Positions 2,956 to 49,447 of a stretch of 64,000 bases of DNA are shown here, piece after piece. The DNA comes from Candidatus Aenigmatarchaeota archaeon. Lineage in GTDB: Archaea > Aenigmatarchaeota > Aenigmatarchaeia > QMZP01. The notes below the pieces were generated by a model. It did not search any database. It saw only the letters and a list, made by a program, of their open reading frames with translations, and was not told the DNA's origin. Position 1 is the first letter of the stretch, and each line of letters starts with the position of its first letter. Made by a program: the position numbers and the translations under genes. The stretch spans positions 4,975-68,974 of the forward strand of contig DAOVCJ010000002.1 of NCBI GenBank assembly GCA_030670085.1. Reading direction: 5' to 3'.

Positions 2956-4030
2956 GTCGAATGACAGGCTCGTAGGGTTTGGAACAGGTGTGTTGACCCA
3001 GATAAACAAGATGAAAAATCCAGACATAAAACTACCGATCAGAGCGCTTTCGAACATTTATTTCGATGAGAAGCATAAACTGATAAGGCTGGGAGACAAG
3101 GTAAGTCACAGAACGTACCTGAATGTTGCTCACACCAGGAAGTTCATGCAGACCCTGCTGGTAGCTTCTGAATGCAAGAAGATAATAAACCAGAACGTCA
3201 CCACATCCATCAGGGATCTTTATTACGCTCTGAAGCATACAATACCCGGAACGAATGAAAACACCTTTGAAGACCAGTCCGAGTCGGATCCCATACTGGA
3301 GGATTTGGAGGCAGCCCTGAACACCCTGAGAGAGGCCCTTCACCTTCAGGCAGACAGGAAGGGATATGTCGCAGGACATATCATGATAAATGACCGTGGA
3401 GACCGAATAGACTGCGCCAAGATGGGTTCCTCCGGCTGGGCTATCCCATCGAACGTTGAACCAGAGGTCATAAAGTTTGAAAAATGTACGGCAGATTTTG
3501 TTCTGGTGATAGAGAAAGACGCGGTCTGGCAGAGACTGAATGAGGACAAGTTCTGGAGAAAACAGAACTGCCTTATCCTGACCGGAAAGGGACAGCCTGC
3601 AAGGGGAACGAGAAGACTGATAAACAGGCTTCACAAGGAACTAAAGCTCCCAGTCTATGTCCTCACAGATGCAGACCCTTGGGGTTATTATATATACTCT
3701 GTTATAAAACAGGGCTCGATAAACCTGTCGTTCCTTTCTGACAGGCTCGGAACTCCTAATGCCAAGTTCATTGGACTGACTGTCCAGGATGTTGAGAAAT
3801 ACGGCATCACAGAGAACGTTACCATAAAGCTGAACCAGGGCGACGTCAAAAGAACGAATGAGATGCTTAAGTATGTCTGGTTTAAGCCAAAGGAGTGGCA
3901 GAAGGAACTGAGACACATGCTTGAGAAGGGATACAAGCTGGAGCTTGAGGCTCTGTCTTCAAAGGGGATAAAGTTCATAAGCGAGAAGTATCTACCTGAA
4001 AAGATAGCGAAAAAGGAATTCCTACCATGA
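2909..4030 (+). CDS. top6A: DNA topoisomerase VI subunit A (Spo11-like)
   Basis: Toprim/Spo11 motifs ([23 protein letters not shown]). The ATG at 2909 is preceded by GGTGAGGAG; the track ORF starts at TTG 2888. Overlaps top6B by 47 nt. Confidence 0.88.
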
Positions 4031-4280: not shown

Positions 4281-6398
4281 ATGGGTTACATCTTGATAAT
4301 ATCCGAGAAGCCGACTGCTGCCAAAAGGATAGCCCATGCCCTTTCAACCGGTGAGTTAAAGAAGCTCGGTAAAAAGGACGCTCCCTATTACAGGATAACC
4401 AGAAAGGGAAAGGATATTATGGTTGTCCCTGCTGTGGGGCACCTATTCGTTCTCGATGAGAAGGAGAAGGGCGCCAAATGGACGTATCCTGTTTTTTCAG
4501 TGGACTGGAAACCCACATTCCAGAAGAAGGAGAACCTATGGTCAAAGAAGTATTACCAGAACATAACCAGCCTTGCGAAAAAGGCGAATGAGTTCATTTC
4601 TGCATGCGATTATGATGTTGAGGGAAGCGTGATAGCGTACAACATACTGAGGTTTATTTGCGGTGTGAAAGATGGAAAACGAATGAAGTTCTCCACCCTC
4701 ACCCCACCGGACCTTGTGGAGGCGTATGAAAACGCTTCGCCACATCTGGACTTCCCGCAGATTGAAGCAGGAATCACAAGGCATTACATGGACTGGTATT
4801 TCGGGATAAACATGAGCAGGGCCCTTACACTGTCAGTGGAGCATGTGGGTGGTTTCTGGACCCTGTCAACCGGACGGGTTCAGGGCCCGACCCTGAATAT
4901 ACTAGAAGAAAGACAAAAAGAGATAATGAGATTCAAACCAGTCCCCTTCTGGCAGCTTGAGCTGCATGGCGTTCTTGATGGGAAGACTATTATAGCCCTT
5001 CACGAAAAAGACAAGTTCTGGAAAAAAGAGGAAGTAGAAAATGCAATGGAAAGATGTAAGGGCAAAGACGGGGTTGTTGACAAGGTTGAAAAAAGGGAGC
5101 ACAAACAATATCCACCGTTCCCATTCGACCTCACAACCCTGCAGAGGGAGTCCTACAACCATTTCGGCTACTCCCCCAAGCAGACCCTGGACATGGTTCA
5201 GGGACTCTACGAACATGCCCTGATATCCTACCCTAGAACATCTAGCCAGAAGCTTCCGGCAAAGATCGGTTACAAAAACATACTGAAAAAGCTGTCAGGC
5301 CAGAAAAGGTATGAAGAGTTGTGTGAAAAACTGCTGGGAAGGAAATTCCTAAGACCAAATGAGGGGAAGAAGGAGGATCCCGCGCACCCTGCAATATTCC
5401 CCACAGGGAACAAACCAAAGAGAATTAACCGATATCAAATGAAGGTTTACGACATGATTGTTAAAAGATTCCTTGCTGTCTTTGCTGATCCGGCGGTGAG
5501 GGAACAGGTAAGGGTGGAGATAAGGGTTGATGGTGAGATGTTTCTCGCGCATGGTATTAGGACTCTGAAATCAAACTGGATTGAGTTCTACAAGCCCTAC
5601 GCCATTTTCAAGGAGGAGATTCTCCCAGAGGTTTCAAAGGGCGACAAGGTTAAGGTTGATGAAATTCTGATGCTTGACAAGGAAACAGAACCCCCGAACA
5701 GATACAGCCAGGCATCGATTCTGAAGGAGATGGAGAACCTGAACCTGGGGACAAAGGCCACCAGAGCGCATATATTGCAAACGCTTTACGACAGGGGGTA
5801 TATAAGGGAGAGATCCATCCAGGTCACTGAGCTTGGCGAGGCTGTGGTTAGCGCATTGGGAAAATACTGCCCGGAAATCGTATCAGCGGATCTTACAAAG
5901 AAGTTCGAGAGTGATATGGAACTGGTTGAGAACGGTAAGAAGAAAAGGGCGGAGATTCTGGAGGATGTTGAGAAAGAGCTTGTCAAGATACTTTCCAATT
6001 TCAAGGAGCATGAGAAGCATATAGGTGAGGAGATACTTAAGGCGATAAAGGATTATGAAAGGGAGATTCACACCGTCGGGAAATGCGACAAGTGCGGCGG
6101 CGAACTCAGAATCATTCATTCCCACAGGACAGGCAAGAGATTCGTGGGCTGCTCCAGTTACCCGAAATGCACCAACTCGTTCCCACTGCCACAGCACGGT
6201 TATATTGAAGTCATATCTAGGAAATGTTCCAACTGCGGCCTGGGTCTAATCCAGGTTAAAGCAAAGGGAAAGAGACCCTGGAGGTTCTGCATAAAGTGCG
6301 GCTTCGAGAACAAGATCAAGAAAAAATCAGGCGGCAAGAAAAAAGAAGAGCTCAAGAAGGAACCTGAAAAAGACGTTAAAAAGAAAGAGGAGAAATAA
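4281..6398 (+). CDS. topA: Type IA DNA topoisomerase (archaeal TopA/Topo III-like) with C-terminal zinc ribbons
   Basis: N-terminal Toprim (ILIISEKPTAAKRIA, VPAVGHLF), a Topo IA core, and two C4 zinc-ribbon motifs (CDKCGG...CSSYPKC; CSNCG...CIKCG). K/E-rich tail. Confidence 0.85.
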   Translation: MGYILIISEKPTAAKRIAHALSTGELKKLGKKDAPYYRITRKGKDIMVVPAVGHLFVLDEKEKGAKWTYPVFSVDWKPTFQKKENLWSKKYYQNITSLAKKANEFISACDYDVEGSVIAYNILRFICGVKDGKRMKFSTLTPPDLVEAYENASPHLDFPQIEAGITRHYMDWYFGINMSRALTLSVEHVGGFWTLSTGRVQGPTLNILEERQKEIMRFKPVPFWQLELHGVLDGKTIIALHEKDKFWKKEEVENAMERCKGKDGVVDKVEKREHKQYPPFPFDLTTLQRESYNHFGYSPKQTLDMVQGLYEHALISYPRTSSQKLPAKIGYKNILKKLSGQKRYEELCEKLLGRKFLRPNEGKKEDPAHPAIFPTGNKPKRINRYQMKVYDMIVKRFLAVFADPAVREQVRVEIRVDGEMFLAHGIRTLKSNWIEFYKPYAIFKEEILPEVSKGDKVKVDEILMLDKETEPPNRYSQASILKEMENLNLGTKATRAHILQTLYDRGYIRERSIQVTELGEAVVSALGKYCPEIVSADLTKKFESDMELVENGKKKRAEILEDVEKELVKILSNFKEHEKHIGEEILKAIKDYEREIHTVGKCDKCGGELRIIHSHRTGKRFVGCSSYPKCTNSFPLPQHGYIEVISRKCSNCGLGLIQVKAKGKRPWRFCIKCGFENKIKKKSGGKKKEELKKEPEKDVKKKEEK

Positions 6399-6835: not shown

Positions 6836-7822
6836 TCAGGCACCCTGCTGGGACTCAAGAAAGACTTCCTTTATTTCTATTGGTTCCACTTTCCTGGACC
6901 TGAGACCCTTCCTTATAATAACGAGCCTCTTCCTAGGACCTGGTACAGATCCCGAGAGGAGCAGGTAATCACCCTTTACCAAACCATAGTTCAGCCATCC
7001 ACCCTTGGGATTGATTCCTCCAGAGCCAGTCTTCATAACCATTTTGTTGAACTCCGTCCGGGTCTGGAAACCGAGCTGTCCTGCCATGGCTATCTTCCCA
7101 GGAAGCACCCTTGCCACTCCCCTCACACCGATAACACCGGTATGCCTTCTTTTCCCCTTGTTTTTCCTAGACCTTATTATAACTCCGAACCTCTTGACAG
7201 GGCCCTGGTAACCCTTTCCCTTGTCCACCGCAGAAACATCAATCCATTCCCCGTTCTTGAAGACATCAGAGACCCTTATCTCATCACCAAGCTTCTGCTT
7301 TGCATACTCCCATTTCTTTTTAACATCACCACCCAGACCTAGCTCAAACAACTCTAGTTTTTTCTTCCCTATGCCAGATTCTCTCGGCTGGGTGTGAACA
7401 AGCAACCTTATGTCCGCAACTTTTTCTATCTGCCCTTCAAGGGATTGAATCTTAGTTTTGGGGTCTGTCTTTTTAGGTACCTTTGTTTTCCTGTCAAGGT
7501 CTTTGGAAAGTTTCTCTGCCCAGATGGTCTCAATCCTTTTCAGACCCTCGGATTTTCTGTAAACATGTATTGCGCAAACCCTAAGTGAGGGACAATCCAG
7601 AACCGTTACAGGTTTGACAATCTCCTCACCCTCTGTTGTAGAATCCTTTCTCTGATTAACAAAAACGAGTCTGGTCATGCCTGCCTTGTAACCAGCAAAC
7701 GCCAACGGCAGGGCTTCCTCAATCTTTAATGCCCTGGTCTTGACCCTGGGATAGATTCTCTTGGCTCTCTTTTTTGGCCAGTATGCCCTTGAACCAGCAA
7801 CGGGTTTGTGATGCTTTGCCAT
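6836..7822 (-). CDS. rpl3: 50S ribosomal protein L3 (uL3)
   Basis: Typical archaeal L3 N-terminus MAKHHKPVAGSRAYWPKKRAKR. Length 328 aa. Confidence 0.9.
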   Translation of the reverse strand: MAKHHKPVAGSRAYWPKKRAKRIYPRVKTRALKIEEALPLAFAGYKAGMTRLVFVNQRKDSTTEGEEIVKPVTVLDCPSLRVCAIHVYRKSEGLKRIETIWAEKLSKDLDRKTKVPKKTDPKTKIQSLEGQIEKVADIRLLVHTQPRESGIGKKKLELFELGLGGDVKKKWEYAKQKLGDEIRVSDVFKNGEWIDVSAVDKGKGYQGPVKRFGVIIRSRKNKGKRRHTGVIGVRGVARVLPGKIAMAGQLGFQTRTEFNKMVMKTGSGGINPKGGWLNYGLVKGDYLLLSGSVPGPRKRLVIIRKGLRSRKVEPIEIKEVFLESQQGA

Positions 7823-7831
7823 GAGATCACC

Positions 7832-8242
7832 CTAAACCCTTCTCCCTCTCCTCCCACCTGGTTTTCTTGTCGTGTCGTGCGGGATCGGGGTTACATCCTC
7901 AATTTTCCCTATCCTGAGACCAGACCTTACCAGAGAACGTATGGCTGGCTGAACGCCCTGCCCGGGCATTTTCTTCTTGTGACCCCCTGGTGCTCGGATC
8001 TTCAGATGGACACCCACAAGACCCCTGGACAATGCCTCGGACGCGGCCCTTCTTGCAGCATGCATTGCAGGGAAGGGCATTCCCTTGTCCTTGTCTCTGT
8101 TGGTGACCATTCCACCGGAAAACCTGGCAATAGTCTCAGCTCCTGTTACGTCAGTGATGTGGATTATGGTGTTGTTCTCAGATGAATAGACATGAGCAAC
8201 ACCCCACATATCCCTTTTCCTCTGCATTTCTGAAGCCATCAT
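7832..8242 (-). CDS. rps11: 30S ribosomal protein S11 (uS11)
   Basis: S11 signature [13 protein letters not shown]...HLKIRAPGG. Confidence 0.9.
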
Positions 8243-11015: not shown

Positions 11016-11045
11016 GACGGCTTGGACATACTGGGTTAAGCCGTC
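11016..11045 (+). repeat. Hairpin element copy 3 (GACGGCTT-N14-AAGCCGTC) in the leader of the L4 operon
   Basis: Perfect 8-bp stem with a 14-nt loop. Lies 16 nt upstream of the rpl4 ATG and downstream of AT-rich TATA-like sequence around 10953-10983. Confidence 0.8.
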
Positions 11046-12877: not shown

Positions 12878-12953
12878 CCCGACTTGGAAAGTTGGATTGA
12901 CGGATTGGTTATATTGGTTCAATCCGTCGAATTGGAGGTTGATAAAAGTCGGG
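12878..12953 (+). repeat. Hairpin element copy 4, a nested variant in the L2-S19 intergenic leader
   Basis: Outer stem is CCCGACTT / AAGTCGGG. It encloses an inner 9-bp hairpin GACGGATTG...CAATCCGTC at 12899-12928. Three ATTGG motifs. The 3' stem abuts AGGAG and the rps19 ATG at 12965. Confidence 0.7.
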
Positions 12954-12964
12954 AGGAGTATGGT

Positions 12965-17564: not shown

Positions 17565-17602
17565 GGGGATAAAGTGAAAGCCCGCATCGGAATAACTTGA
17601 GA

Positions 17603-17632
17603 GGCGGCTTAATTCGATTAACTAAAGTCGCC
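17603..17632 (+). repeat. Hairpin element copy 5 (GGCGGCTT-N14-AAGTCGCC) in the S4e-L5 intergenic region
   Basis: 8-bp stem that includes one G.U pair, with a 14-nt loop aattcgattaacta. Nested inside an outer helix CCCGCAT (17581-87) / ATGCGGG (17651-57), which is followed by AGGTGATGAT and the ATG at 17668. Confidence 0.75.
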
Positions 17633-17667
17633 ATGCGATTCGTTGAACAAATGCGGGAGGTGATGAT

Positions 17668-20354: not shown

Positions 20355-20384
20355 CCCGACCTGGATCGATTGCATTAAGTCGGG
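20355..20384 (+). repeat. Hairpin element copy 6 (CCCGACcT-N14-AAGTCGGG) downstream of rpoD
   Basis: Stem pairs 7 of 8 with a 14-nt loop ggatcgattgcatt. Confidence 0.75.
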
Positions 20385-25125: not shown

Positions 25126-25155
25126 GGCGACTTTATTCAATTGCTCCAAGTCACC
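25126..25155 (+). repeat. Hairpin element copy 7 (GGCGACTT-N14-AAGTCaCC)
   Basis: Stem pairs 7 of 8 with a 14-nt loop tattcaattgctcc. Intergenic. Confidence 0.7.
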
Positions 25156-25173: not shown

Positions 25174-25203
25174 GATGGCTTGTTCTGATTGGCCCAAGCC
25201 ATC
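25174..25203 (+). repeat. Hairpin element copy 8 (GATGGCTT-N14-AAGCCATC), in tandem 48 nt after copy 7
   Basis: Perfect 8-bp stem with a 14-nt loop gttctgattggccc. Confidence 0.75.
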
Positions 25204-30078: not shown

Positions 30079-30480
30079 TTGATGACGAAGAAGGCCAAAA
30101 AGACAGAAGCCAAGAAAGCAGAGAAAAAGGAAAAGCCAAAAGAAACGAAGGAAAGGTTCGCATTCCCAGAGGCGTGTATTGTAAGGATAATGAGGAAGCA
30201 CCTGGACAAGGAGAAGATGATAAAGAAGGACGTCAAGGTAGGGATGAACAAGTGGCTCGAGAAAGTTTGCTCGAACGTCGCGAAAACCATGAACAAGTTC
30301 CCCTACGTTATGATGACGAAGAGCGAGTTCAGCAGGGGAATAAAGGTTTATGAGACACTAGAAGAGTTCGATAAAGAGAAAGAAAGGATACTCGCTCATA
30401 TGGATGCAATGAAAAAGGACATAGAGAAACTCGAAAGGGATTTGGGCAAGACAGAGCAGGAAGTTCTGGAGATGAGTTAA
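30079..30480 (+). CDS. Histone-fold-like protein with an N-terminal Lys-rich tail and a C-terminal coiled-coil extension
   Basis: Tail MTKKAKKTEAKKAEKKEKPKETKE. The core FPEACIVRIMRKHL...KDVKVGMNKWLEKVCSNVAKTM aligns with HMfB/NF-YB helices 1 and 2 (LPIAPIGRIIK ... IASEAIKLA). This is pattern-level evidence only. Confidence 0.4.
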   Translation: MMTKKAKKTEAKKAEKKEKPKETKERFAFPEACIVRIMRKHLDKEKMIKKDVKVGMNKWLEKVCSNVAKTMNKFPYVMMTKSEFSRGIKVYETLEEFDKEKERILAHMDAMKKDIEKLERDLGKTEQEVLEMS

Positions 30481-30542
30481 ACCTCCTGGTTCTTTTAAAA
30501 TAAATAAAAACCATTTTACTATACCTAAGTATATAAGCGTAT

Positions 30543-30572
30543 GACGGCTTGACCATATCGGATTAAGCCGTC
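30543..30572 (+). repeat. Hairpin element copy 9 (GACGGCTT-N14-AAGCCGTC) in the tRNA 5' leader
   Basis: Perfect 8-bp stem with a 14-nt loop. Flanked by AAGCGTAT, as is copy 10. The AT-rich stretch ttttactatacctaagtatataag (30514-30537) just upstream may be the promoter. Confidence 0.8.
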
Positions 30573-30584
30573 TCTCAAAGGATC

Positions 30585-30788
30585 GCGGGGGTACCCAAGC
30601 GGTCAAAGCGTATGACGGCTTAAACAGATTGGATAAAGCCGTCTGTGACTAAAGGGGCTAGCCTAAGGAGCTAGTGGCTTAGAACCCTTTTCGTTCCAAA
30701 CACACAAAAGCGTTCGTGGAAAAGAAAGGGTGAGTAATGCCTTCCTGGGTTCGAACCTCGAAAACGAGCGAAAATCCCAGCCCCCGCA
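30585..30788 (+). tRNA. Putative class-II (Leu/Ser-like) tRNA gene with multiple non-canonical introns; anticodon unresolved
   Basis: 7 of 7 acceptor pairing GCGGGGG (30585-91) / CCCCCGC (30781-87) plus discriminator A. D-arm TACCCAAGCGGTCAAAG. T-arm CTGGG-TTCGAAC-[19-nt insert with CTCGaaaaCGAG]-CCCAG. Hairpin copy 10 (30614-30643) interrupts the D region. The 204 nt minus about 120 nt of inserts gives the size of a class-II tRNA. Candidate anticodon loops are CTTAGAA (UAG) at 30678-84 or CTAAGGA at 30663-69. Confidence 0.55.
30614..30643 (+). repeat. Hairpin element copy 10 (GACGGCTT-N14-AAGCCGTC) inside the putative tRNA (intron-like)
   Basis: Same flanks as copy 9, which lies 71 nt upstream. 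Loop aaacagattggata. Confidence 0.75.
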
Positions 30789-30795
30789 TAATTTC

Positions 30796-31641
30796 TTAGT
30801 AGTAAGTAAGGAACCTCAGGCCCCCATATACCATGGAACATCCCAGACCAAAGTTGCCTAAAAGTTTCCAGAACCCGTCCCATGTCCTGTTTTTTGAGAG
30901 AACATACCTTCTAAGCATCCCCTTTGCAACCCATGCCCTGGGCGGGGAGTAGTTCTGGTTTATGTAATTCATGACCTCCATGTAGGACCTTGCTAACCTC
31001 TTCTTTGCCCAGTCCATCAGAACAGAAAGGGACATGTAATCTGTCTGGAATTCCACCCTACCGGCTTTTATCTCCTTCAGGGCACTGTCAAGGTCATACG
31101 CATTCATTTCATTCACAGCCAGACCAAACATGTCCTCTGTATGGGAATCAGATCCCACCACCATGGGTTTTCCAAACTCCTCTGCCTTGTTAAAGGCTAG
31201 CCTGTTCGAGAGCCTGTCAAGGTTCATGGAATTGAACACCTCCACAGCATCCACGTAGTATATCCCGTTCTTAATCCCCTGCCCCCTCAGATCAAACGGG
31301 TGGGGGGCCATTACCAAACCGCCCTGCTCATGGATCTTTTCAACAGTCTCTTGTAAACCAAGGTCCCTGTCTATGTGTTCATTTAGACCCAGCCCAATTA
31401 GATGCCCCTTCCGTGTGCTTATCTCAATACCGGGTATGAAAACCAGTCCGTATTCCCTTGCTGCTCTCTTTGCCTCTTTCCATGCCCTGAAGTCATCATG
31501 ATCTGTTATTGCAACACCAAAAATTCCCCTGAGCCTGGCTGCCTTCATAATCTCCCTTGGAGACATGAACGCCTCCCAAGGTATCTTCTTTCCCAACGAG
31601 TAATGGGAGTGACAGTGGAGCTCGAATTTCATCACTTTCAC
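30796..31641 (-). CDS. PHP-domain metal-dependent phosphoesterase
   Basis: N-terminal HCHSHYS...ITDHDD motifs of the PHP family. Confidence 0.75.
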   Translation of the reverse strand: MKVMKFELHCHSHYSLGKKIPWEAFMSPREIMKAARLRGIFGVAITDHDDFRAWKEAKRAAREYGLVFIPGIEISTRKGHLIGLGLNEHIDRDLGLQETVEKIHEQGGLVMAPHPFDLRGQGIKNGIYYVDAVEVFNSMNLDRLSNRLAFNKAEEFGKPMVVGSDSHTEDMFGLAVNEMNAYDLDSALKEIKAGRVEFQTDYMSLSVLMDWAKKRLARSYMEVMNYINQNYSPPRAWVAKGMLRRYVLSKNRTWDGFWKLLGNFGLGCSMVYGGLRFLTYY

Positions 31642-33932: not shown

Positions 33933-34033
33933 TTTAATCCTTTACCCTTTCTTTTTATTTTTGTTTTGTTAGTTCTTTTTCTAGCTGAATCGAGATAATC
34001 AGAATAAAAGCGCTGGGAGAGGGAAATTCGAGG

Positions 34034-34063
34034 GACGACTTTTTTCAATATACCCAAGTCGTC
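34034..34063 (+). repeat. Hairpin element copy 11 (GACGACTT-N14-AAGTCGTC) downstream of tuf
   Basis: Perfect 8-bp stem with a 14-nt loop ttttcaatataccc, followed by CATGCG as in copy 5. Confidence 0.8.
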
Positions 34064-34227
34064 ATGCGCTTTTCGAACCCCCATGCCCATACGGGCACAC
34101 GCTATTTATTCCCGTTTTTGCTCACCCGCTTTTTGTGAAAGCGGCGAGCTCCTGTAAAAAGCGGGTCTCCAAGCGTGCTCCTTAACCATTCGGACATCCC
34201 AGCACAATCAAGCCCTTATCGCTGTAA

Positions 34228-48364: not shown

Positions 48365-49447
48365 ATGTCAAATAAGGGAGACGACTTGGACAGATTGGAC
48401 AAGGTCGTCCAACCAAAAGAATCGAATGACGACTTGGTCAAATCAGATAAAGTCGTTCAACCAAAGGAATGGCCTGTTGCAGAGGGAAGGTACAAAGTGG
48501 GAAATAAGGATTCCCCGATTGCAGTGTGTACAATGGCATCTGTTGAGATGAATATGCCCATGGACAAGATCGCAATCATTGGAAAATGTGTGACCGAGAA
48601 CTTAGGGGTAGAGAAGATAATAAAGAACACGATATCAAACCCGAAAATAAGATACTTGATATTCTGCGGCAAGGAATCGCACGGACATTTCGTGGGCCAG
48701 GCTATGAAGTCCCTGAAGGAAAACGGAGTAGACGGGGAGAAGAGAATCATCGGAGCAAAGGGAGGCATGCCTGTTCTAAAGAACCTTGAGATGGAGGAGA
48801 TAGAGAGGTTCAGGGAACAGGTAGAACCGATTGATATGGCAGACGAGACAGACACTGCAAAGATACTGGCAAAGGTTAATGAGCTGTTTGAAAGGAACCC
48901 AGGGCCATTCGAAGGAGGGAGTATGGAGACAGAAGAAGAGGTAAGGGAGACCAGGGCAGAGTTCCACCCTATCGCCGAATGGATGAAGGATCCAGAGGGC
49001 TTTTTCACAATATACCCAAATGCGGAGAGAGAGGAGATAGTTGCTGAACACCACGACAACGAAGGCAAGATGAAGAGCAGAATCTTTGGGAAATCAGCAG
49101 AAGACATATACCACCATATAATAAAAAACAACCTGGTTTCCAGGTATGACCACGCAGCCTACTTGGGAAGGGAGCTTGCAAAAGCAGAGCTTGCGATGAG
49201 AAACCAGCTGGACTATGAACAGGACGCTGATTTAAAAACCATGAAACAGAATAATGAACAAACAGAGCCAACGGTTCCCAGAGAGCCGGAAATTTCCAGA
49301 CCACTTCCCCCAAAACCAAAAAAACCGAAAGGTAGGTTTCTCACCTACATCAAGGGGGGAAGGGAGATCGCAGTGGAGGACTTTACAAGACAGGACAATG
49401 AATTCAGGGCTCTTCTCAGGGAAAGAGGAATGTCAAGAATATTTTAG
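48365..49447 (+). CDS. MtrA-like protein (tetrahydromethanopterin S-methyltransferase subunit A family homolog) with an extra C-terminal domain
   Basis: WPVAEGRYKVGN...IAVCT...IIGKCVTENLGVEKII...SNPKIRYLIFCGKESHGHFVGQA...ENGVDGEKRIIGAKGGMPVLKNLEMEEIERF follows the MtrA pattern (WP..GEY.VG..VAV.T..G.C.TEN.GIEK..SNP.IRYLI..G.E..GH..G). The N-terminal 32 aa are two in-frame hairpin elements. Confidence 0.55.
   Translation: MSNKGDDLDRLDKVVQPKESNDDLVKSDKVVQPKEWPVAEGRYKVGNKDSPIAVCTMASVEMNMPMDKIAIIGKCVTENLGVEKIIKNTISNPKIRYLIFCGKESHGHFVGQAMKSLKENGVDGEKRIIGAKGGMPVLKNLEMEEIERFREQVEPIDMADETDTAKILAKVNELFERNPGPFEGGSMETEEEVRETRAEFHPIAEWMKDPEGFFTIYPNAEREEIVAEHHDNEGKMKSRIFGKSAEDIYHHIIKNNLVSRYDHAAYLGRELAKAELAMRNQLDYEQDADLKTMKQNNEQTEPTVPREPEISRPLPPKPKKPKGRFLTYIKGGREIAVEDFTRQDNEFRALLRERGMSRIF
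48380..48409 (+). repeat. Hairpin element copy 12 (GACGACTT-N14-AgGTCGTC) inside the N-terminal coding region of the MtrA-like gene
   Basis: 8-bp stem including one U.G pair, with a 14-nt loop ggacagattggaca. Encodes DDLDRLDKVV. Confidence 0.7.
48428..48457 (+). repeat. Hairpin element copy 13 (GACGACTT-N14-AAGTCGTt), in tandem 48 nt (16 codons) after copy 12
   Basis: 14-nt loop ggtcaaatcagata. Encodes DDLVKSDKVV. Confidence 0.7.

Follow-up and report, generated by a model that had tools for sequence, protein, structure and literature searches.

tRNA genes with up to three non-canonical bulge–helix–bulge (BHB) introns are described from the Thermoproteales and from other Crenarchaeota and Thaumarchaeota (PMC8450103, PMC4090602). 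Here we describe such a gene in a DPANN archaeon, at positions 30585-30788 of a 64,000-nucleotide stretch of contig DAOVCJ010000002.1 (GenBank assembly GCA_030670085.1, contig positions 4,975 to 68,974) from a Candidatus Aenigmatarchaeota archaeon. This stretch is referred to as the window, and coordinates are given in its numbering. We also describe a short hairpin repeat, one copy of which appears to serve as the first intron of the gene. From its anatomy and from comparison with relatives, we judge the locus to be a functional chromosomal three-intron tRNA-Leu(AAG) gene of the Aenigmatarchaeota, with a probability of roughly 85%. Multi-intron tRNA genes are already known; what is new here is a tRNA intron family common to mRNA 5' untranslated regions (UTRs) and tRNA leaders.

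Intron transposition in the Thermoproteales, in which related introns are found at different tRNA positions, was described in 2010 work, and the passage of PMC4090602 that treats it states the mechanism to be unknown. DPANN archaea are reported to possess the splicing endonuclease EndA either as an alpha4 enzyme with an L3 loop or as an epsilon2 enzyme (PMC5829648), the crenarchaeal enzyme being (alpha-beta)2. Disrupted tRNAs and broad-specificity endonucleases of this superphylum have been documented for the epsilon2 EndA of ARMAN-2 (PMC3239211) and for the alpha4 enzyme with the L3 loop (PMC5829648), and disrupted tRNA genes yet to be identified have been predicted for new DPANN genomes (PMC5829648). 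In Caldiarchaeum subterraneum, tRNA-Thr gained an intron through a 1.8-kb recombinase-encoding element that left a tRNA fragment (PMC3293823). Archaeal genomes are also reported to encode no tRNA with adenosine at position 34 (A34) (PMC7668247), Archaea using G34 for pyrimidine-ending codons (PMC8450103).

The tRNA-Leu gene proper lies on the forward strand and comprises four exons separated by introns of 46, 55 and 19 nt. Exon 1 (30585-30606) contains the 5' strand of the acceptor stem, GCGGGGG (30585-30591), followed by TA, the D-stem strand CCC and the D-loop sequence AAGCGGTCAA. Intron 1 (30607-30652, 46 nt) interrupts the 3' part of the D-loop at approximately position 21/22 and contains a hairpin with stem strands at 30614-30621 and 30636-30643. 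Exon 2 (30653-30682) resumes the D arm, which thus reads CCC-AAGCGGTCAA, intron, A-GGG, and continues with G26, the anticodon arm CTAGC-CTAAGGA-GCTAG, a T and the 5' part of the variable arm, GGCTTAG. Intron 2 (30683-30737, 55 nt) is located in the variable-arm loop. Exon 3 (30738-30755) is composed of the 3' part of the variable arm (TGCC), TTC, the T-stem strand CTGGG and the T-loop up to position 59 (TTCGAA). Intron 3 (30756-30774, 19 nt) occupies T-loop position 59/60 and carries a CTCG-AAAA-CGAG mini-hairpin, and exon 4 (30775-30788) supplies T60, the second T-stem strand CCCAG, the 3' acceptor strand CCCCCGC (30781-30787), which pairs with the 5' strand, and the discriminator A73 (30788). 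CCA is not encoded, and exon 4 is followed by the trailer TAATTTCTT.

Upstream of the gene, an A/T-rich box, TTTAAAATAAATAAAA (30494-30509, forward strand), is a putative archaeal TATA/BRE promoter of the precursor tRNA (pre-tRNA), judging from a reading of its sequence; the transcription start would then fall about 25 nt 3' of this box, at the beginning of the leader element. This element (30535-30580, forward strand) is a copy of the hairpin repeat, consisting of the flank AAGCGTAT, the stem strand GACGGCTT (30543-30550), a 14-nt loop, the stem strand AAGCCGTC (30565-30572) and the tail TCTCAAAG; its covariance model (CM) score is 45.9 bits. A first-pass annotation, made by a model from the letters of the window, had reported the acceptor stem, D-arm and T-arm together with about 120 nt of extra sequence at three places; all three are present where it placed them, and the inserts sum to exactly 120 nt. 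Its span of 30514-30792 encloses the gene, although 30514-30584 is promoter and leader, and its T-arm is real, although the mature T-loop is TTCGAAT rather than TTCGAAC, the final C being the first base of intron 3.

The unspliced gene is not detected in a scan of the whole window by ARAGORN (with or without its intron option) or by Rfam at the gathering threshold, and an Rfam E-value scan of 30400-30900 returns noise only. Splicing in silico (30585-30606 + 30653-30682 + 30738-30755 + 30775-30788) yields an 84-nt class II tRNA, which ARAGORN identifies as tRNA-Leu(aag); its D stem has 3 bp, and its variable arm pairs GGC with GCC. The ARAGORN check proposed by the first-pass annotation therefore fails on the unspliced gene and succeeds on the spliced product.

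Splice junctions were assigned with a BHB rule in which the last six bases of the 5' exon comprise four bases paired to intron positions -6 to -3 and then two bulge bases, and the 3' exon contributes its first base as the last of the three in the second bulge; A denotes the outer exon–exon helix, C the central helix and B the inner intron helix. The rule reproduces the textbook 37/38 case and was afterwards validated by the orthologues. Intron 3 has a strict hBHBh' motif (A = 5, CTGGG:CCCAG; C = 4, TTCG:CGAA; bulges AAC/AAT; B = 4, CTCG:CGAG, loop AAAA) in the BHB scan, and the identical motif is seen in the unconstrained minimum-free-energy (MFE) fold (-79.7 kcal/mol, z = -4.65). Intron 1 has a relaxed BHB, found both by the scan and in the centroid fold (C = 4, GGTC at 30601-30604 with GACT at 30647-30650; bulges AAA/AAA; A = 1), in which an inner helix of three base pairs (B = 3, GCG:TGT) leads into the 8-bp hairpin; inside the A runs the cut could be placed one position to either side, which leaves the product unchanged. 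The BHB of intron 2 is also relaxed (C = 4, GCTT at 30677-30680 with GAGT at 30732-30735, comprising two Watson–Crick and two G-U pairs; bulges AGA/AAT), with an inner helix of 8 bp and no outer exon–exon helix (A = 0). Two strong BHB candidates are observed, against a mean of 0.09 in composition shuffles. The search for BHB motifs that had been suggested for the junctions thus returns a strict motif at the T-loop and relaxed motifs at the D-loop and the variable arm, and the proposal of a multi-intron class II tRNA stands, with BHB junctions at all three sites.

Orthologues of tRNA-Leu were located near EF1A in three relatives, L010 (3105-3188), L006 (2140-2223, minus strand) and L001 (2678-2823, minus strand), of which L001 is the closest. 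The L010 gene, also tRNA-Leu(AAG), has no intron; it aligns without gaps to the spliced window product, and its variable arm, TGGCTTAGTGCCTTC, is identical. This identity fixes the splice register of intron 2. An alternative register (30684-30736) gives a product that ARAGORN accepts, but it is 86 nt long and not colinear with the orthologues, and was rejected. The sole intron of the L006 gene (85 nt) lies at 59/60, the position of intron 3, with the central helix TTCG:CGGA. The sole intron of the L001 gene (61 nt) lies at the exact site of intron 2 and is related to it in sequence (z = 5), the central helix being kept through changes, with GGGC replacing GAGT. In the gapless alignment of the four orthologues (84 columns), 92 of 92 stem cells pair, and compensatory, both-sided changes occur in 9 of the 23 stem pairs, a value reached by none of 500 shuffles.

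The orthologues thus form a series: no intron in L010, the T-loop intron only in L006, the variable-arm intron only in L001, and all three in the window. Because it is common to the closest relative, the variable-arm intron is old, whereas the D-loop intron, absent from all three orthologues, is a gain specific to this lineage. Introns recur at the T-loop position.

The anticodon is AAG (30665-30667) in the loop CTAAGGA. Of the two loops left open by the first-pass annotation, CTAAGGA is correct; CTTAGAA was rejected, as its CTTAG is the variable-arm loop, identical in the intronless L010 gene. The window, L006 and L010 all keep the loop CTAAGGA, and their stems covary; L001 has GAG. AAG in three Aenigmatarchaeota genomes contradicts the published generalization that archaeal genomes encode no A34 tRNA (PMC7668247) and raises the question of whether the lineage deaminates A34; no deaminase candidate was seen in the window. 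CUU and CUC codons are both common in 24 window genes (228 and 177, respectively), and the options for decoding CUC are a separate Leu-GAG gene, A-to-I editing or an unmodified A34.

An independent assembly, L212 (ENA ERZ23498622), matches the window at 99.6% identity over 7.27 kb, with 28 mismatches and one 1-nt gap. None of these 29 differences falls inside tRNA-Leu or the neighbouring tRNA-Ser locus described below, so the tRNA-Leu structure is not an assembly artefact. The surroundings are those of a housekeeping chromosome rather than a mobile element, with genes for topoisomerases, ribosomal proteins, EF1A, SMC and IleRS; the EF1A gene, 1.9 kb downstream of tRNA-Leu, has a best match with 87% identity, and its next matches are Aenigmatarchaeota metagenome-assembled genomes, which assigns the organism to this phylum. 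A split or permuted tRNA was considered and rejected: the four exons lie in order, on one strand and within 204 nt, and the leader hairpin forms no BHB with any tRNA part.

Several observations weigh against a functional gene. In introns 1 and 2 the outer helix is rudimentary or absent (A = 1 and 0, respectively), so that their removal would need a broad-specificity endonuclease or sequential folding. At the variable arm, the MFE fold is a continuous hairpin and not the BHB conformer. Neither EndA nor RtcB was found among the approximately 45 open reading frames (ORFs) of the window scanned with Pfam. A34 is unexpected in Archaea, with the attendant question of how CUC codons are read.

We infer that tRNA-Leu is expressed and is processed by the following enzymes in the following order. 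The pre-tRNA would be transcribed with a leader of about 50 nt beginning at the hairpin element, and RNase P would remove the leader together with its hairpin copy. EndA, the archaeal splicing endonuclease, would cut the paired 3-nt bulges of the three BHBs, and an RtcB-type ligase would join the four exons, after which CCA would be added.

The hairpin repeat was modelled with a CM built on 12 copies, which finds 13 copies in the window and nothing else (0.36 expected). The family has no Rfam match. Its consensus is AAkCGnAU-GACGRCUU-GGnnAnAUUGRAnA-AAGYCGUC-CAwCCArA, with the core GACGRCUU-N14-AAGYCGUC. In the 8-bp stem, 99% of cells pair and five of the eight pairs covary, and the loop has a conserved core, A-U-U-G-R. 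Exact matches to GACGGCTT-N14-AAGCCGTC occur at 11016, 30543 and 30614, where none are expected by chance, and the only two instances of the flank AAGCGTATGACGGCTT are 71 nt apart, at 30535 and 30606. For 12 of the 13 copies, the best-scoring strand is the one that encodes the downstream gene or tRNA; the copy at 20355 scores about equally on both. G-U pairs are found in the stems solely on the strand of the downstream gene. A DNA operator for a dimeric transcription factor was rejected on these grounds, as the two arms change together and G-U pairs are confined to the transcribed strand.

The 13 copies are distributed over 5' UTRs or intercistronic spacers (ten copies), the tRNA-Leu leader (one) and tRNA introns (two). 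The mRNA-type copies lie at 1278-1307, 1323-1352, 11016-11045, 12899-12928, 17603-17632, 20355-20384, 48380-48409 and 48428-48457 and, on the minus strand, at 25126-25155 and 25174-25203. They are upstream of genes for TopoVI-B (tandem pair) and ribosomal proteins L4, S19 and L5, a small ORF after RpoD, an OB-fold gene (tandem pair) and an MtrA-like gene (tandem pair); the hairpins of the three tandem pairs are separated by an 18-nt spacer, CAwCCAAAmGAAUCGAAw. In primary-transcript contexts the hairpin starts about 25-30 nt past an A/T-rich box, and therefore, as far as the sequence can be read in this way, it is probably located at the very 5' end of the RNA. A potential pseudoknot between loop UUGGR and 3' flank YCCAR can be drawn for 8 of 14 mRNA-type copies, none of which individually outperforms shuffled flanks.

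Some mRNA-type copies have further structure around them. The S19 copy is nested in an outer stem, CCCGACUU/AAGUCGGG (region 12878-12956), and the L5 copy in the outer stem CCCGCAU/AUGCGGG (region 17581-17664); the 3' strands of both overlap the Shine–Dalgarno sequence GGGAGG, 8-10 nt before the start codon. These outer stems could reflect either Shine–Dalgarno sequestration or nested repeat insertion; that of S19 is itself family-like and looks like a nested insertion. At the MtrA-like gene (region 48365-48470), a long ORF from the ATG at 48365 would translate the tandem hairpins into the repeated peptide DDLxxxDKVVQPKE. The Pfam MtrA match begins only at about 48467, and the true start of this gene is uncertain; the hairpins there are more likely to be 5' UTR than coding sequence.

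The D-loop intron of tRNA-Leu is essentially one element of this family, comprising a 7-nt flank, the 30-nt hairpin and a 9-nt tail, with a CM score of 44.6 bits. The closest sequence to it is the leader copy (33 of 38 positions identical, z = 14.6), and it is also similar to the T-loop intron of tRNA-Ser (28 of 37, z = 7.6). The first-pass annotation had described the D-region insert as a member of a hairpin family that shares the AAGCGTATGACGGCTT flank with the copy 71 nt upstream, which is borne out. Its further suggestion that the element can behave as, or derive from, a tRNA intron agrees with the three orthologues without a D-loop intron and with the T-loop intron that the family forms in tRNA-Ser. 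The accompanying idea of a BHB-like substrate holds in part: the hairpin itself is not a BHB and instead gives an intron-internal helix, while the 3' flank of the element pairs with the exon. In the D-loop, the hairpin forms the stable inner helix (h'), and the tail GACU-AA provides the central helix and bulge against GGUC-AA of the D-loop. The tails of the tRNA-linked copies are complementary to the local exon, with GACU in the tRNA-Leu D-loop, CGAA in the tRNA-Ser T-loop and CCAG against UUGG in a tRNA-Ala gene of locus L166. The mRNA-type copies have the tail CAwCCArA or AUUCCAGAA. A BHB around the mRNA-type hairpins was rejected, as their flanks give symmetric internal loops or nothing, with no staggered bulges.

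Provided that the three-intron tRNA gene is genuine, we consider it somewhat more probable than not that the D-loop acquired a copy of the repeat, by insertion or recombination, and that this copy was tolerated because it can be excised as a BHB intron. The leader copy 71 nt upstream is a plausible donor, or else a sibling copy. In our reading, the same process placed a family copy into a pre-existing T-loop intron of tRNA-Ser. A relationship between the variable-arm intron of tRNA-Leu and the canonical intron of tRNA-Ser is weak (z = 2.9) and was not retained. This account of the D-loop intron is itself subject to objections. Between the leader and D-loop copies, stem and flank are identical but 5 of the 14 loop positions have changed, a pattern that points to selection acting on the hairpin and not to very recent copying. 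Target-site duplications are unconvincing, amounting to short AAG/AAAG-like repeats next to some copies. The direction of transfer and the mechanism of insertion are offered as a proposal only. No transposase (including RAYT and IS200/IS605) or recombinase was found in the scanned ORFs of the window.

The second tRNA gene with a family intron, tRNA-Ser(GGA) (34011-34203, minus strand), was found by following the fourth hairpin copy and has two introns. One, of 63 nt (34104-34166, minus strand), is at the canonical position 37/38. The other, of 47 nt (34025-34071, minus strand), is at T-loop position 59/60; its core is a member of the hairpin family (CM score of 48.5 bits), and its junctions form a strict BHB (TTCG:CGAA, outer helix GGGGG:CCCTC). 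In the related locus L003, tRNA-Ser has introns at the same two positions, of which the canonical one is homologous (z = 8.6) and the T-loop one is unrelated in sequence and has no hairpin; the block comprising a Zn-ribbon gene and tRNA-Ser is inverted in the window relative to L003. The L001 tRNA-Ser gene (7747-8003) has three introns (D-loop, 37/38 and an approximately 100-nt intron at 59/60), none with the hairpin; its 59/60 intron, like that of L003, is unrelated in sequence to the one in the window. Multi-intron tRNAs that ARAGORN misses therefore appear to be routine in this Aenigmatarchaeota clade. Like tRNA-Leu, the window's tRNA-Ser is missed by ARAGORN and Rfam, and as a consequence Aenigmatarchaeota genomes annotated in this way look tRNA-poor. 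A scan of the window for T-arm and acceptor combinations found only the Leu and Ser genes as hidden tRNAs.

Beyond the window, the family has no CM match in 40 related DPANN loci totalling 413 kb, among them L001, the closest relative. A pattern scan of metagenomes recovers about eight true members at 35-45 bits, the rest being mostly chance palindromes of GC-rich bacteria. Two of the members, in L166 and L167, are again associated with tRNA genes, in other metagenomic archaea. In L166 (minus strand, ~3150-3420), the tRNA-Ala(CGC) gene contains a 43-nt hairpin-family intron in the D-loop and a 76-nt intron at 59/60, and its spliced product is recognized by ARAGORN. In L167 (minus strand), a family hairpin and a second hairpin, GAAGGCGUC/GACGCCUUC, are located in the leader of the apparent 5' part of a tRNA-Arg(TCT); its 3' part is not obvious downstream, and the gene may be split or heavily interrupted. 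The members in L081, L102, L113 and L125 occupy 5' UTRs or intercistronic spacers. Two of these loci, L081 and L125, share the S13-S4-L3 cluster of the window at 57-65% amino-acid identity, with the hairpin before S13 in L081, between S13 and S4 in L125 and nowhere in this operon of the window. A viral origin was rejected: the 11 pattern matches in IMG/VR score at most 24 bits, compared with at least 36 bits for true members, and are therefore chance matches.

In L150 (1190-1250, ~2553-2582), GACGGCTT-N14-AAGCCGTC occurs in a 57-nt insertion of an archaeal 23S rRNA from a metagenome, where the Rfam model has 18 nt, and the CM scores the strand opposite to the rRNA higher. It may be a related repeat that colonized an rRNA helix tip, or a mini-intron.

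In its main habitat, the hairpin could stabilize 5' ends, bind a protein or be a selfish REP-like repeat. A role at the RNA level is favoured by co-orientation, covariation and conservation across lineages, and proliferation by patchy distribution, tandem or nested copies and variable occupancy; the two are not mutually exclusive. A stricter view would make the hairpin primarily a functional RNA motif (a 5'-terminal stabilizer or the site bound by a lineage-specific RNA-binding or processing protein) and not a selfish or mobile repeat, without altering the status of tRNA-Leu as a genuine gene with three introns; within tRNA leaders and introns the hairpin would, for example, chaperone pre-tRNA folding, mark RNAs for processing or yield a small RNA. 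The 12 copies with a clear strand call fit this view, being co-oriented at non-coding transcribed sites just upstream of start codons or tRNAs, as do the strand-restricted G-U pairs, the conserved loop core and the shared stem and 5' flank of the leader and D-loop copies despite their diverged loops. The same stem with a similar loop also recurs in organisms whose ribosomal proteins are just 57-65% identical, and some copies are nested in stems that overlap the Shine–Dalgarno sequences of S19 and L5. However, the family is absent from the 413 kb of related genomes, closest relative included, its position in orthologous operons is not conserved, and its tandem and nested copies look like the products of repeat proliferation. 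Moreover, it belongs to no Rfam family, no candidate binding protein was identified, and the loop-to-flank pseudoknot test is not significant. On balance, a primarily functional motif seems unlikely to us, though it is the strongest competitor to an origin of the D-loop intron from a mobile repeat.

That the tRNA-Leu locus is instead a decaying pseudogene, broken by the hairpin repeat and other junk and yielding no functional tRNA, is very improbable. In its favour, the unspliced sequence escapes the standard detectors, the BHBs at two of the three junctions are no more than relaxed, and the anticodon AAG is atypical for Archaea (PMC7668247). Against decay, all 23 stem pairs are intact once the introns are removed, with compensatory changes relative to the orthologues, and at the borders of every insert a 4-bp helix and two 3-nt bulges lie in the right register. 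The position and BHB pairing of the variable-arm intron are kept in L001, AAG is common to the L006 and L010 orthologues, and the second assembly, L212, has no nucleotide difference at the locus despite differences elsewhere in 7.3 kb.

Box C/D guide small RNAs (sRNAs) are encoded in tRNA-Trp introns of some Euryarchaeota. For the D-loop intron to be such an sRNA or a K-turn RNA, and the family a set of guide RNAs, is the least credible reading of all: four copies do begin with AUGACGR, one or two mismatches from the C box (RUGAUGA), and some loops hold xUGA strings, but a D box (CUGA) is missing from the 3' end, as is any C'/D' pair, the bases of AUGACGR are Watson–Crick paired in the covarying stem so that tandem sheared G-A pairs cannot form, other copies lack the motif, and Rfam finds no sRNA family.

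Returning to the functional three-intron gene and a repeat-derived D-loop intron, we tentatively extend the interpretation to the family as a whole, while holding the extended version to be less probable than not. A proliferating non-coding 5'-end module would found tRNA introns, and possibly rRNA insertions, wherever its flank and an exon form a BHB; the D-loop intron would be a de novo gain from a non-tRNA source, with the leader copy as probable donor, and no archaeal group before this lineage would have been shown to use an A34 tRNA (Leu-AAG). The newest intron of tRNA-Leu is a copy of a repeat that lives mainly in mRNA 5' UTRs and tRNA leaders, which makes the question of its origin experimentally approachable. 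If true, the extended interpretation would provide a concrete, testable mechanism for archaeal intron transposition, which has been inferred but never explained.

In comparison with the multi-intron tRNAs of the TACK archaea, the gene has introns at the same kinds of site (D-loop, variable arm and T-loop 59/60), bounded by BHB or relaxed BHB motifs, and standard finders likewise miss it, but its host belongs to the DPANN. Work on disrupted DPANN tRNAs concerns the same superphylum and also reports non-canonical and multiple introns; however, it includes no Aenigmatarchaeota tRNA sets and no intron family common to mRNA leaders. The transposed introns of the Thermoproteales resemble those described here in that related introns occupy different tRNA positions (Leu D-loop and Ser T-loop in the window, tRNA-Ala D-loop in L166) and in that gain followed species divergence and depended on BHB compatibility at the new site. 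In contrast to them, the present family is not confined to tRNAs: 10 of its 13 copies in the window are upstream of protein genes, in mRNA 5' UTRs or spacers, which points to a non-tRNA reservoir for new introns.

The tRNA-Thr of Caldiarchaeum shares with this locus heterogeneity among lineages or populations and a recent intron gain tied to a repeated element, the element here being a non-coding hairpin repeat of about 40-48 nt, with no recombinase seen in the 64 kb, rather than a recombinase-encoding one. The hairpins themselves are similar to the bacterial REP, Correia and ERIC repeats, which are short imperfect palindromes dispersed in transcribed intergenic DNA. In both, the stems show compensatory changes, copies can be tandem or nested, the distribution is restricted to certain lineages, and orthologous sites are variably occupied. 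Unlike REP-type repeats, they are found in an archaeal host and lie upstream of genes in the same orientation, and BHB splicing lets them live in tRNAs.

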